Source: an uncultured Nitrososphaerota archaeon (GTDB lineage: Archaea; Thermoproteota; Nitrososphaeria; Nitrososphaerales; Gagatemarchaeaceae). Taken from it: a stretch of 64,000 nucleotides of DNA. How positions within the stretch are numbered: position 1 is the first letter of the stretch; the number at the start of each line of letters is the position of its first letter. Shown in pieces: positions 51,270 to 55,619 of this stretch. Below the pieces are notes generated by a model that ran no database searches, had not been told where the DNA came from, and was given only the letters and a program-made list of their open reading frames with translations. The stretch is from assembly GCA_963718895.1 (NCBI GenBank), contig CAVRAG010000008.1, positions 128,001 through 192,000 of the forward strand, in the 5' to 3' direction. The position numbers and the translations under genes are program-made.

Positions 51270-51928
51270 CAAACGTCCTCGTTATGGCAAGGGGCGGAAG
51301 GGAAGAGGTTTTTACAAGGAACCTCGTTCCGGGCAACAGGACGTACGGCGAAGACCTTATCAGAATAGAAGGGACTGAGTTCAGAGCCTGGGACCCGTTC
51401 AGGTCCAAGCTCGGGGGCGCGATCCTCAAGGGTCTACCCCAGGACGTGATACGCCCAGGCGACAAGGTGCTCTACCTGGGGACCTCCACGGGGACCACCC
51501 CTTCGCACGTCTCAGACATTGTGGGCCCGAGGGGGCTGCTCATCGGGGTCGAGTTCGCTCCCCGCGTCGGGAGGGAGTTCGTGGAGAACGTCGCCAGGGT
51601 CAGGCGGAACGTCGTCCCCTACATAGCAGACGCCCGCGAGGCCGAGAGGTTCGCGTCCTTCGGAAAGGTGGACGTCGTCTACTGCGACATCGCGCAGCAG
51701 GACCAGACCGAGATAGCCATCGAGAACTGCCGGAGGAACCTCAAGAAGGGAGGCAGGCTCATCCTGATAGTGAAGTCCAGAAGCATCGACGTCCTGAGAG
51801 AGCCCAGGGACGTCTTCCGCCAGGAGGGAGAGAGGCTTACGAAGGCGGGCTTCGGGGTCGAGAGGATCATCGAGCTGAGTCCCTTCGACAAGGACCACGC
51901 CCTGATATCTGCGGTGTTCGCCGGCTAG
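51266..51928 (+). CDS. flpA: Fibrillarin-like 2'-O-methyltransferase
   Basis: YGE, WDPFRSKL, VLYLG..GTTPSHVSD, LSPFDKDH. Confidence 0.96.
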   Translation: MTNVLVMARGGREEVFTRNLVPGNRTYGEDLIRIEGTEFRAWDPFRSKLGGAILKGLPQDVIRPGDKVLYLGTSTGTTPSHVSDIVGPRGLLIGVEFAPRVGREFVENVARVRRNVVPYIADAREAERFASFGKVDVVYCDIAQQDQTEIAIENCRRNLKKGGRLILIVKSRSIDVLREPRDVFRQEGERLTKAGFGVERIIELSPFDKDHALISAVFAG

Positions 51929-52604
51929 GGGATGAGCGTCGAGGCGAGGATCCGGTCCCAGGTCTTCCAGCTTCTCCTTGCGAACGACGGGATGGCGCCC
52001 TCCCTCTCCACCCACCTCCTGAGGTAGGTTATCGTCTCGCCGTCCGAGGGATATCCTGAACCGAACTCCCCGTGTTCCGTTCGGAGGAGTTCGACAGCTC
52101 TGTCCCGTTCGACCTTCGCCACTATCGAGGCGGCAGAGACCACCACGTAGTTCTTGTCCGCCCTGTGCTCGGCGACTATTCTAGGCTTGCACGACATCAA
52201 ATCCCCCAACTCTCTCGTGAACCTCATCGGGTTCGTGTCAGGGGCATCGACGTACACCTCCTCCGGGTTCATGAGGTCTATTATCTTCGCCATGTGGAGA
52301 GCTTCAAGAAAGTTGAGGCGTCGATATTTTTTGCCCACCCTAACGTATCGGTCGATCTCCTCCGGTTCCGCATACGAGACCTGGACAGACTCGCACAACT
52401 CGACTATCTCAGGGTACATTGATTCTCTTTCGGTTGACGAGAGGGCCTTCGAGTCCTTCACTCCGAGCTCCTTCAGCAGTTTCAGCGATTGATACTTTAT
52501 GGAAACTCCAGCTACAACTAGGGGCCCAAGTACAGAACCTTTCGGGGAGCGGATTTCTCAACGCGCTCTCTCCCAGCTTCATCGACCCCTCCAACGAGCC
52601 TTAT
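51925..52604 (-). CDS. rnhB: Ribonuclease HII; exons 52604-52570 and 52540-51925; ATA start; 216 aa when spliced
   Basis: Spliced N-terminus (M)RLVGGVDEAGRGSVLGPLVVAG..LGVKDSKAL; AEHRAD, VSAASIVAKVERD, GSGYPSD, RRSW. Confidence 0.9.
52541..52569 (-). other. Candidate 29-nt bulge-helix-bulge (EndA-type) intron in rnhB mRNA
   Basis: Minus strand GAAGC-UGGG-[AG^A]-GAGCG-loop12-CGCUC-CCCG-[AA^A]-GGUUC: 4-bp central helix and two 3-nt bulges; excision restores GCT GGG AGA GGT TCT (A-G-R-G-S). Confidence 0.85.
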
Positions 52605-53627
52605 TTGACGATCACCCGCTTTTCACCCTGAACCTTGCGCCAATTAGAGTTTACCTTTTCGACGAGGCCAAGCCGGGCCATCTCTGTAAGCCTTCTCGCG
52701 ATGGTTTTCTGGTCCCTGCTAAGCATAACAGAGATCTCGTAAGGTCGGCGCGGAACGATGAGCACGTCCAAGATTCTGGACTTCTCCAAGGAGATGACGA
52801 CGCTCCTCTGGTCGGTCCTGATCCAGTAGTATGTGCTTCTAACCTTGTACACTTCAATCTGTTCTCTTCTGCGCAGGTCGGAAAGAACTTGGTAAGCCCT
52901 CGCATCGCCCCTTTCGATGCTCTTTGCAACCTCATGCGTGGTCATAGGCGCGAAGAGAGCCCCTAGAACCAATGGCGGGAGAGAGTCGCGCTGGTAGTGT
53001 CGTTGTTTATAGGAGTCGAGCATTGCAAGGAATTTCGCGTGCTTCTTGGAATGTAACTCGGTTATGCCAATGCGTTGAAGTTTCTCCAGATTCTCTCGAC
53101 CAGAGATGAGGTAATTCCTCCCTGAAACCTCATACAGGAAAGACACCTCGTAGTGCCGCAGGATTCGTTCGACGAAGTTCATTCGCTTGCCTTCCGCGAT
53201 TCGCAGACACCTCGTATGACTACTTTTGGAGGTCTTTGATGTTCCCCTCCCCTGCAAAAAAGCCTTGGAGCAAGCCTTGATAGTTTGAGGGAGCTTTGCG
53301 CGCGAGTCTAACTGTCTTCTTCCAATCCCGGACTAACTCAACATCTGCGACTCTGTAGATATAATAAGGCACATTTGCTCTCCTATCGACATACGTTCGG
53401 TAACGGACATCGGCTACGGGTCGAACGAAGTCAGTGAAGACCGAGGGACGATAGACGTAGATTCGAGGAGAGTTGCGTGGTCGAAATCGCGCCCAGAGCG
53501 CTTCGTGGAAGAAGCGTACAAGGAACGGATCGTTGTTGGTGAAGGTAACTTCACTGGAAGATCTCTTGTCGCCTTCCGCGGTCCATAGCCCAACAATCCG
53601 GGCAAGATCGAGGTCCGAATCGCTCAT
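52601..53627 (-). mobile_element. Free-standing double-motif LAGLIDADG homing endonuclease with two C-terminal wHTH-like repeats; one frameshift near 53235
   Basis: LARIVGLWTAEGD..VTFTNND and LLQGFFAGEGNI motifs; no Hint domain; AT-rich; stop TAA overlaps the rnhB ATA start. Confidence 0.85.
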
Positions 53628-53852
53628 GAACCAGAAGGATGTGGAAGTATATCAGCATCCCTACTCGCAAGGCCCTGCGGCAGAATCAGCTATTGCTTGT
53701 TCGTGATGGGCCAACCAAGTTCAATAAGCATATACCGAATTCGAGTTGTACAGAGTTGTTATTGTGAGCGTACAACCTTTCGAGAATCAAGTGCACGGCA
53801 AGCGGGCTCAAAAACTGATTCTTGTCGCAAGGCTTACTCGCAACGATCCACC

Positions 53853-54413
53853 CTAGGTCTGCTGCGGAGGAAGAACCGCGAGTATCTGCCTCGCCAGCGA
53901 TTCGGGCAGACCCTCCCTGTTGTGAAGCGTGACTTCGGTCATCTCCTTGCCGGGGAGCCCCCTGAACTCGTCGACAAGAGGGTCCCTGATCTTGTCGTGG
54001 ACGACCGCGAGGATCGGCTTGCCGGACCTGAGGCATGCCTCGGCCGCCCTCTTGAACTCCGGGCTGGTGAGCTCCATCGGACCCACCTCGTCGATGGCGA
54101 TCAGGTCAGCCATCTTCGAGGCCCCGGCGAGCGACACCGCCCCTACCTCGACCAGACCCTTGAGGTCGACCCTGTACCTCCCGACCCGCGGTCCGAGTAT
54201 GCCCTCGGACGAGGCGAGCCTACCCTCCACTCCGCTCATCAAGTCCAGTATCGTGAAGCCCGTCCGCTCCCTCCCCTTCCGTCTCTCCTTGGTGAGGCAC
54301 CCGCCGACCCCGTAGCCGCGCGACCTCACCAGGTAGATGACCTTGGAGACCACGGTGGACTTGCCTATCCCAGGGGGACCGGTCAGGAGCCACGCGCGCA
54401 CAGGGGAGGACAA
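53853..54413 (-). CDS. THEP1/NTPase_1-family nucleoside triphosphatase
   Basis: LTGPPGIGKST, RVGRYRVD, IDEVGPMEL. Confidence 0.92.
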   Translation of the reverse strand: MSSPVRAWLLTGPPGIGKSTVVSKVIYLVRSRGYGVGGCLTKERRKGRERTGFTILDLMSGVEGRLASSEGILGPRVGRYRVDLKGLVEVGAVSLAGASKMADLIAIDEVGPMELTSPEFKRAAEACLRSGKPILAVVHDKIRDPLVDEFRGLPGKEMTEVTLHNREGLPESLARQILAVLPPQQT

Positions 54414-54467
54414 TGTCAGGAGTCCAATTCTGCTCCGCTTAAATGCTTCACGACGAGGCGGTCCCGC

Positions 54468-55619
54468 GTGCTTCCGAAGCTCGAGGTCATCCGGGAGGGA
54501 CGGACCGAGCTCTACGTCCCCTCGCAGAGCCTCGCCGGGACCCCTCCCGCAACCCACCCGGTGTTCTTCAATCCAGCCGCGAGGACGAACAGAGACATCT
54601 CAGTCGCGGTCGCCGCGGTGACCAGACCGGGGACCTACCTTGATGTCCTCGCCGCGGCCGGGGCGCGCGGGATCAGAGTCGCAAACGAGTCCAACTCGAA
54701 GACGCACGTCACGCTCGTCGACTTTAGCGGACCGTCCCTCGCCGTGGCGAGGAAGAGCATCAGGAGGAACCGGCTCCATGAGCGGTGCGTCGTGGTTCAC
54801 GAAGAGGCGAACAAGTTTCTCGTCTCGCGGTTCGAGCGGCCCGAGAAGTTCGATGCCATCGACCTGGACCCCTTCGGGTCACCCGCTCCGTTCGTTCTCG
54901 CGGCCACGATGGCGGCGGCGGACGGGGGCGTCCTCTCGGTGACGGCGACCGACGCAGCCGTCCTCTGCGGCGTCTATCCGGCCGTCTCGGTCCGCCGCTA
55001 CGGCGCTCTGGCGGTGAGGAGCGAGTTCGTCCACGAGACCGGTCTCCGGATCCTGCTGGGTTACGCGGCCCGGATGGGCGGGGTCAACGACATCGGGATA
55101 GAGCCGATAGCGGCCCACAGCACCCTGCACTACCTCCGGGTCCTCCTCAGGATCAAGAGGGGGGCGGCGAGAGCAGACGAGTCAGTCGGGAGGCTCGGCT
55201 ATGTCACGCAGTGCAACGGATGCGGCTGGAGGGCGTCGGGGCCCATCCCATTAGACCGGTGCCCTCATTGCCGCCTCCGAGTCCGGTCTGCGGGCCCACT
55301 CTGGACGGGGAAGCTCGTCGACGAGCAGATAGCCTTCGAGGCCTCTGGCTTCTGCGAGGAGGCGGGCTGGAAAGAGGCCGCGGCCATCCTTCGGTCGTTG
55401 AAGGGCCTTGACGACTTCCCGACCTTCAGCTACTCCCCCGAGCGGGTCTGCTCGCGACTCAGGATACCCTCGGTCCCCACACGCGGTGCGATCGATGCCC
55501 TCGTCGGTTCAGGGTTCAGTGCGGCACGGCAGCCCTTTGAGGAGAACGGAATCAAGACCAGTGCGAGCTACGCGGAGTTCGTCCGTGCCCTGCGCACGGC
55601 ATCAGGTACGTCTGCCTAG
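54468..55619 (+). CDS. trm1: tRNA (guanine26-N2)-dimethyltransferase
   Basis: VFFNPAARTNRD, GARGIR, IDLDPFGSP, VTATD, GPLWTG. Confidence 0.93.
   Translation: MLPKLEVIREGRTELYVPSQSLAGTPPATHPVFFNPAARTNRDISVAVAAVTRPGTYLDVLAAAGARGIRVANESNSKTHVTLVDFSGPSLAVARKSIRRNRLHERCVVVHEEANKFLVSRFERPEKFDAIDLDPFGSPAPFVLAATMAAADGGVLSVTATDAAVLCGVYPAVSVRRYGALAVRSEFVHETGLRILLGYAARMGGVNDIGIEPIAAHSTLHYLRVLLRIKRGAARADESVGRLGYVTQCNGCGWRASGPIPLDRCPHCRLRVRSAGPLWTGKLVDEQIAFEASGFCEEAGWKEAAAILRSLKGLDDFPTFSYSPERVCSRLRIPSVPTRGAIDALVGSGFSAARQPFEENGIKTSASYAEFVRALRTASGTSA

Follow-up and report, generated by a model that had tools for sequence, protein, structure and literature searches.

This report concerns an interrupted rnhB gene, encoding ribonuclease (RNase) HII, in a stretch of 64,000 nucleotides (nt), hereafter the window, from an uncultured Nitrososphaerota archaeon (contig CAVRAG010000008.1, positions 128,001 to 192,000). 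On the minus strand of the window, two overlapping open reading frames (ORFs), at 53220-53627 and 52601-53257, lie directly upstream of rnhB. Within rnhB, the Arg codon of the motif D-E-A-G-R-G is split by a 29-nt insert, which an earlier reading of the DNA (the original prediction) took for a bulge-helix-bulge (BHB) micro-intron of the tRNA type. The features of the locus, with the coordinates of the window, are the following.

52541-52569, minus strand: predicted 29-nt BHB micro-intron, beginning with the last base of bulge 1 and ending with the middle base of bulge 2; unchanged in length and site across eight genomes, and bridged by a public contig.
52570-52604, minus strand: rnhB exon 1, with the putative catalytic Asp-Glu codons at 52583-52578 and, at its end, the AG of the split Arg codon; where it begins is uncertain, ATA at 52604-52602 being the sole start candidate.
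51925-52540, minus strand: rnhB exon 2, in which the base completing the Arg codon is followed by 204 codons and a stop; supported by translation, family profile and a ratio of nonsynonymous to synonymous substitution (dN/dS) of 0.06-0.24.
52572-52575, minus strand: exonic 5' strand of the predicted central helix, UGGG; paired in 100% of cells in eight genomes, with compensatory pair types in the 53 register-8 sequences described below.
52543-52546, minus strand: intronic 3' strand of the predicted central helix, CCCG; same pairing evidence as for the UGGG strand.
52569-52571, minus strand: bulge 1, AGA, with the predicted 5' cut between 52570 and 52569; AG invariant, third base A or U.
52540-52542, minus strand: bulge 2, AAA, with the predicted 3' cut between 52541 and 52540; first two bases AA, UG or CG, last base always A.
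52547-52568, minus strand: predicted intron hairpin, consisting of the GAGCG/CGCUC stem, an extension and a loop; supported by folds and by the alignment of eight genomes.
52611-52616, minus strand: GGTGAT, a hexamer that resembles a Shine-Dalgarno sequence and precedes the ATA codon by 6 nt; kept in all eight genomes of the genus, its role as a ribosome-binding signal being presumed.
52601-53257, minus strand: C-terminal piece of a LAGLIDADG and winged-helix gene, with the second LAGLIDADG motif and two winged helix-turn-helix domains; matches residues 128-349 of the intact protein of genome G006.
53220-53627, minus strand: N-terminal piece of the same gene, with the first LAGLIDADG motif; matches residues 3-157 of the G006 protein, contains one TAG, and is separated from the C-terminal piece by a frameshift.

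On the minus strand the gene reads GAT GAA GCT GGG AG, followed by the 29 nt (52569 down to 52541) and then by A GGT TCT GTA CTT GGG CCC. The frame of exon 1 is ...RLVGGVDEAG, and by the position of the insert both N-terminal acidic residues of RNase HII (D-E), which we take to be catalytic, fall to this short exon. The stretch 51925-52539 translates into 204 residues and a stop. This exon-2 product is an RNase HII (Pfam PF01351, E 7e-40) matching profile positions 9-198, and profile positions 1-8 fall in exon 1. It is aligned from residue 12 of the solved archaeal RNase HII chains 1io2 and 2dff (E about 1e-40), and the host gene as a whole matches the family profile and the solved archaeal enzymes over its full length. 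The genome of the window (3.13 Mb in 11 contigs, 80.5% complete) contains one RNase HII match. As far as the anatomy is concerned, the original prediction was accurate: insert, flanking codons and every pairing that it named are present, cutting in silico after the second nucleotide of each bulge restores D-E-A-G-R-G, and the second intact rnhB that it had named as a refuting condition was not found in the genome.

The insert and its flanks can be drawn as a BHB motif with two 3-nt bulges around a central helix of 4 bp. The central helix UGGG/CCCG includes one U.G pair, and the outer helix GAAGC/GGUUC, formed between the exons, includes one G.G mismatch. The inner helix has 5 bp and an extension here, and 3-11 bp in the other sequences examined. 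By rule, the archaeal splicing endonuclease EndA separates the second and third nucleotides of each bulge. A scan of the whole window for 3-4-3 BHB motifs, in which four central pairs and minima of four inner pairs and one outer pair were required, recovers the site: exon 1 ends at 52570, and the intron measures 29 nt. BHB-like motifs number 838 in both strands of the window and are hence common by chance. A motif falls into the register that restores the frame with a probability of about 1.8e-4 for each position and length; it is the exact register, not the BHB motif as such, that is improbable. Searches of the window with Rfam and ARAGORN gave no match.

Within the order, the same insert was found in a part of one genus only. 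A pattern built on it was found in 8 of the 401 genomes searched, with one match each, and the reversed control pattern was found in none. All 8 belong to a single genus, of which 23 genomes were searched, that of the window included. Among 41 related genomes, seven rnhB copies were seen to have an insert of the identical length of 29 nt at the identical codon; the remaining copies of the genus and all copies outside it have an uninterrupted D-E-A-G-R-G. In the alignment of the eight genomes, the bases AG of bulge 1, predicted to be exonic, show no variation, and they are followed by A or U. In bulge 2, the predicted intronic bases are AA, UG or CG, and the predicted exonic base, which completes the codon AGA, is A throughout. 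All cells of the central helix in this alignment are paired. The intron hairpin is also kept; in G017 and G009, as read from the alignment, its register is shifted and A-U replaces G-C. In the rnhB tree, intron-bearing alleles are interspersed with intronless ones, and at least three changes are forced by well-supported branches. G006, whose copy is truncated by the end of its contig, entered neither the tree nor the dN/dS comparison.

The two upstream ORFs give a weak LAGLIDADG_3 match, just under the Pfam cut-off (21.7 vs 22.5 bits), and a TrmB-type winged helix. A sequence comparison of the upstream protein with solved structures returned one chance-level match only, and a fold search was required. 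An AlphaFold model on 15 homologues reached a predicted local distance difference test (pLDDT) value of 91.6. For its first ~200 residues, I-DmoI, I-Tsp061I, E-DreI, bI3 maturase and WhiA are among the best Foldseek matches, the top match being WhiA (3hyi). Template-modelling (TM) scores normalised by target length are 0.54-0.65 for the I-DmoI chains and 0.56 for I-Tsp061I, and the tail of the model matches the winged helices of SelB. Glu is invariant in both LAGLIDADG motifs of the 15 aligned sequences. According to the model, the protein would have the alpha-beta-beta-alpha-beta-beta-alpha core of the LAGLIDADG family, with its two motifs and conserved acidic residues; the copy of the window is frameshifted. 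The frameshift lies near 53220-53257, where the relatives align with one base fewer, and only G006 possesses a single intact gene (349 codons). Among the 41 relatives, the protein occurs in exactly the 8 insert-bearing genomes and at this locus only. The original prediction overlooked this adjacent gene, by which the insert becomes part of a probable mobile cassette and no isolated oddity.

The arrangement extends far beyond the genus. Homologues of the upstream protein number 374 at E <= 0.001, most of them of ~340 aa, and several are found in records with DPANN names. In the phylum of the Aenigmatarchaeota-labelled genome G401, the protein was found in 13 of 201 genomes, and in 13 of these 13 rnhB lies directly downstream with an insert at the same motif. 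A scan of metagenomes added 80 loci. In total, rnhB adjoins the endonuclease gene at 94 of 101 loci. Six of the seven loci with no rnhB match end within ~170 nt past the endonuclease gene, and the other, L105, has a truncated endonuclease gene and ~1.1 kb of downstream sequence with no rnhB match. At four loci (L160, L168, L170 and L090) no stop separates the endonuclease ORF from rnhB exon 1, with which it shares one frame (~350 open codons), and an endonuclease-RNase HII fusion after splicing is conceivable there.

After the removal of duplicates, 80 unique sequences with inserts of 20-46 nt were available, unrelated in sequence to the insert of the window. In these, every pair of cut sites was scored for the strict 3-4-3 motif, with the frame ignored. 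The top-scoring strict BHB gives A/S-G-R/K-G/S/A in 59 of the 80, compared with 4 of 4000 shuffled inserts; some strict BHB gives this product in 70 of the 80, compared with 13 of 4000. The cuts occupy three registers, with 7, 8 or 10 exon bases between the D-E codons and the cut, in 8, 53 and 8 sequences, respectively, and one insert is located two codons upstream. The latter, in the metagenomic locus L108, is a 24-nt insert between the Glu and Ala codons, and a strict BHB restores the motif there as well. The intron would thus appear to have slid along the codons while one cutting rule still predicts the right product. The insert lengths are found in all three classes modulo 3 (41, 17 and 12); therefore, the inserts are untranslated.

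Additionally, the intron can be found apart from the nuclease gene. A motif-plus-gap pattern, which catches only a part of the known variants, matched 17 of the 201 genomes of the second phylum, with 0 control matches. Eleven of these 17 (G410, G422, G444, G452, G454, G479, G487, G497, G503, G548 and G579) have the insert and no endonuclease homologue at E <= 1e-10. It can be seen that intron carriers outnumber genomes with a detectable nuclease gene in this sample. Therefore, splicing cannot depend on the endonuclease protein, and the intron outlasts the protein.

The interrupted gene bears the marks of a living one. All seven intron-bearing copies that are complete retain an open exon 2, 204 codons long in six of them. 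In G020, exon 2 continues past the usual stop and two N are present; this copy was cut to 190 codons for comparison. By pairwise Nei-Gojobori estimates, exon-2 dN/dS is 0.06-0.24 for intron-bearing pairs and 0.13-0.25 for the other pairs. In three sister pairs with the insert on both sides, it is 0.089 (G000-G010), 0.105 (G019-G020) and 0.130 (G016-G017), at synonymous divergences (dS) of 0.5-1.2. The dS of intron-bearing pairs is 0.5-1.9 in 19 of 21 and above 2 in the other two, so that synonymous sites are near saturation; despite this, exactly 29 nt and the helix bases have been retained. Exon 2 is under purifying selection, like the intronless alleles. The low dN/dS persists across splits of the lineage; therefore, either the RNA or its translation has to re-establish the frame.

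The machinery suited to the first of these routes is encoded in the genome. Two EndA paralogues (185 and 181 aa) are present, each with N- and C-terminal domains. One is closest to the chains 3p1z_B, 3ajv_B, 2cv8_A and 2zyz_B, presumably crenarchaeal enzymes, and the other is more divergent; the best solved relatives are archaeal splicing endonucleases. RtcB is also encoded (E 2e-169), and ARAGORN reports introns in 27 of 44 tRNA genes of the genome, several of them implausibly long. According to one study, the two-subunit EndA is conserved in TACK archaea, including Thaumarchaeota, and cuts relaxed motifs (PMC5829648). In the proposed mechanism, the last exon-1 bases UGGG would pair with CCCG at the 3' end of the intron, leaving a 3-nt bulge on either side, and the rest of the intron would form a hairpin. 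The two-subunit EndA would open each bulge between its second and third nucleotides, and RtcB would join the exons, by which the Arg codon AGA and the motif D-E-A-G-R-G would be recreated. The 29 nt are, with high probability, a BHB intron spliced by EndA and RtcB in the pre-mRNA of the sole RNase HII gene, and part of a homing-endonuclease cassette. On this central point the original prediction is supported, in the genus by the conserved length, the fixed exonic bulge bases, the purifying selection on exon 2 and the encoded splicing enzymes, and elsewhere by the frame that the cutting rule restores in distant sequences.

Several observations weigh against this interpretation and have to be set beside it. 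The minimum free energy (MFE) fold of 66 nt is no more stable than expected (z 0.79; 160 of 200 shuffles are at least as stable), and it prefers a 3-bp central helix with a GAA bulge over the 4-bp form. Also, RNAalifold on the eight sequences of the genus gives a 3-bp helix and a 4-nt bulge; it suggests, moreover, a longer helix between the exons, farther from the bulges. With one C-G pair followed by the G.G mismatch, which is fixed by the codons, the outer helix is weak and fits a motif nearer to the relaxed BHB form. None of the public runs listed for 51900-53900 of the window is an RNA run, and they say nothing on expression. The endonuclease gene is frameshifted, interrupted by a stop or mostly deleted in 7 of the 8 genomes of the genus. 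Between an in-frame TGA and the D-E codons, exon 1 has no ATG, GTG or TTG in its frame; six of the eight genomes have an in-frame TTG 40 nt ahead of the stop, and this TTG is closed off by TGA in the window. In 10 of the 80 unique sequences, no strict BHB with the right product was found. Finally, covariation within the genus is not significant, since only one pair is changed on both sides and 54 of 500 shuffles reach its score. Of the alignment across relatives suggested in the original prediction, the presence and absence of the insert were observed, and the compensatory changes emerged in the wider set instead. The register-8 sequences have C-G, U-A, G-C, A-U and wobble pairs at the outermost and innermost positions of the central helix, and these pairs track the third bases of the Ala and Gly codons; this table of pair types is drawn from sequences preselected for four pairs, and the shuffle test is the unbiased measure. 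For the predicted intron, the decisive evidence is the comparative evidence of the wider archaeal set, not the covariation of the genus.

Four other explanations of the insert can be considered. The first is a pseudogene, in which the 29 nt would be a disabling insertion, the start codon would have been destroyed by the upstream gene, and rnhB would be dead. The window exon 1 has indeed no canonical start codon, the cassette parts rnhB from its former start, decayed remnants of which are visible in relatives, and further genes of the assembly are broken, for example cbf5. However, exon 2 is open in all complete copies with dN/dS equal to that of intronless alleles, length and helix bases were kept over the same time, the genome has no second rnhB, and the arrangement recurs in 80 unique sequences of distant lineages; a dead gene is thus very unlikely. 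The broken cbf5, together with the 80.5% completeness and the 11 contigs, could equally be cited for an assembly or sequencing artefact, as it is disrupted by several shifts of ~1 nt. A block of 29 nt is unlike an indel error, and the insert occurs in 8 separate genomes, some of them in many small contigs. Moreover, the original prediction had named raw data as a check, and among the DNA contigs from public runs, each covering parts of the stretch, one bridges the insert: a 151-nt contig of another run (X6, record 7) spans 52467-52617 with 0 differences. Because this contig of a separate run crosses the insert without a difference, the insert is no assembly artefact; contig and eight-genome search together refute that explanation, and its residual probability is minute. 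The cbf5 homologue itself (G000:C7:484104-485047, minus strand, outside the window) consists of at least four frame pieces with shifts of ~1 nt and no inserts, the result of either an indel-prone assembly or a decaying gene. It was considered as a positive control for mRNA splicing and set aside as uninformative, for it has no BHB-type insert, unlike crenarchaeal cbf5.

The other two explanations accept a functional gene. Under translational recoding, ribosomes would skip the insert or change frame, in the manner of phage T4 gene 60, and no splicing would take place. Some known bypass elements are short and hairpin-forming, and so is this insert. Against this stand the lack of matching take-off and landing codons (AAA, UGA or CGA before the 3' junction, AGA at the 5' side), the variation of the inserts from 20 to 46 nt in three registers, and the conserved 3-4-3 geometry with compensatory pairs between exon and intron, for which bypassing has no need; recoding is accordingly given little credence. 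Removal of the intron without EndA, either by the neighbouring LAGLIDADG/winged-helix protein acting as a maturase or RNA nuclease or by another RNase, is slightly less remote and still improbable. The fold matches to the bI3 LAGLIDADG maturase and to the winged helices of SelB, which bind RNA hairpins, would suit such a role, as would the consistent position of the protein next to rnhB. Yet its gene has decayed in seven of the eight genomes of the genus in which intron and exon 2 are conserved, most of the pattern-positive genomes of the other phylum (11 of 17) have no detectable homologue, and the conserved geometry is exactly that of an EndA substrate. Splicing by EndA and RtcB consequently remains the favoured account of how the frame is restored.

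The adjacent gene suggests how the intron may have spread. The endonuclease would cut intronless rnhB at the site coding for DEAGRG, and repair from the occupied allele would copy the intron together with the endonuclease gene ~35 nt upstream of it. As the intron splits the target, the carrier would be protected, and RNase HII would still be functional. The patchy distribution (8 of 41 and 13 of 201 genomes), the interspersed alleles and the decaying nuclease genes beside conserved introns speak indirectly for this model. Two loci speak against it: in L172 and L174, the endonuclease gene is found beside an rnhB without an insert. In both, the Arg codon is CGT, and L174 reads D-D-A-A-R-G; these may be cleavage-resistant targets. 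On balance, it seems likely, with less assurance than attaches to the splicing of the intron, that a two-part selfish element exists in at least two archaeal phyla, consisting of a free-standing LAGLIDADG/winged-helix gene and a host-spliced intron of 20-46 nt that homes into the DEAGRG codons of rnhB, the intron shielding the target and often outliving the nuclease gene.

The start of exon 1 is less clear than its end. The sole candidate, ATA at 52604-52602, follows GGTGAT at a distance of 6 nt and overlaps the TAA by which the upstream ORF ends. The original prediction of a 216-aa product, and of a stop after 28 codons in the unspliced frame, was counted from this ATA; that the exon-1 frame has no canonical start had escaped it. 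Elsewhere, 28 unique loci have a canonical start overlapping a TGA stop at the same place, and 11 unique loci have no canonical start at all. In G010, one extra A puts the ATA out of frame. The assemblies of G010 and of the window genome both have few contigs and low completeness, which, with the broken cbf5, suggests indel-prone assemblies. In intronless relatives, the nucleoside triphosphatase (NTPase) gene, which here lies upstream of the cassette, is directly followed by an rnhB starting with ATG. Between the NTPase gene and the cassette, decaying remnants of the rnhB 5' end are seen at L006 (G019), L008 (G017), L007 (G016) and L010 (G009). Those of G019 and G017 keep the ATG and a few codons and form a partial direct repeat of exon 1, and a possible, doubtful trace is present in the window at ~53770-53800. 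A second, large BHB intron holding the LAGLIDADG gene, which would supply the upstream ATG, was also considered. The remnants differ between genomes, the ATG is lost in G016 and G009, and no remnant was seen in G010 or G020, the trace in the window being doubtful; the idea was dropped without a formal fold test.

Comparison with known systems indicates which parts of the element are familiar. The splicing of HAC1/XBP1 mRNA by IRE1 and RtcB is non-spliceosomal, employs an endonuclease and an RtcB-type ligase, and changes the frame. The participation of RtcB in XBP-1 splicing is stated in one source (PMC8718801). That system differs in its endonuclease and its RNA motif, and it is regulatory and stress-induced, with no mobile element. 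As of 2009, according to another source, archaeal pre-mRNA splicing had been confirmed for cbf5 only, and other cases were predicted (PMC2738675). The introns of crenarchaeal cbf5 (Aeropyrum, Sulfolobus), as described there, resemble the present one in being short, BHB-like, situated in a protein gene and removed by EndA, a removal that is here predicted from sequence; they are also gained and lost among related lineages and can be mistaken for a frameshift (PMC2738675). Here, in contrast, the host gene is rnhB, the intron would interrupt a catalytic motif, the lineages are labelled Nitrososphaerota and DPANN, and a LAGLIDADG gene is adjacent.

For the nuclease, the closest parallels are the rRNA and tRNA BHB introns that encode I-DmoI and I-Tsp061I, where a BHB intron is likewise paired with a monomeric LAGLIDADG enzyme of two motifs. 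In the present case, the endonuclease gene lies outside the intron and upstream of the start of the host gene and has two extra winged-helix domains, and the intron is only 20-46 nt long and would reside in mRNA. WhiA, the top fold match, shares the LAGLIDADG core and the C-terminal helix-turn-helix. It is catalytically inactive, whereas here Glu is invariant in both motifs, and the patchy distribution and frequent decay are as expected of a selfish nuclease. In the collaborative homing of phages, as the source describes it, a free-standing endonuclease and a group I intron that lacks an ORF share one conserved target, which the intron interrupts (PMC3984707). The convergence of an endonuclease gene and an ORF-less intron on one site is similar here, the target being presumed, with the differences that the intron would depend on host EndA and RtcB rather than splice itself and that the carriers are archaea, not phages.

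A description of an rnhB BHB intron or of the cassette was not found in the literature covered, most subscription journals and supplements lying outside that coverage, and archaeal mRNA introns go unmentioned in the accessible part of a 2026 review on non-canonical splicing. Neither the chemistry of splicing nor the family of the nuclease is new. What appears to be new is the host gene, the location of the nuclease gene outside the micro-intron, and the spread across phyla. Mobile introns in protein-coding genes are very rare in archaea. After cbf5, rnhB would be the second protein-coding gene with a tRNA-type intron, with comparative support from 80 unique sequences of several lineages. The link to an externally encoded homing endonuclease points to a possible route of BHB introns into protein-coding genes. 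An essential enzyme of genome maintenance would, in these lineages, have been made dependent on the tRNA-splicing machinery. If this is true, many 'frameshifted' rnhB genes in archaeal genome bins would be intact. Gene callers mark such genes as frameshifted or missing, which lowers estimates of completeness and distorts metabolic reconstructions.

Beyond the cassette, a listed ORF of 640 aa (53697-55619, plus strand) overlaps at its 5' end the NTPase-like gene at 53853-54557 (minus strand). Only its later part resembles a real gene, by eye a candidate Trm1-type methyltransferase.

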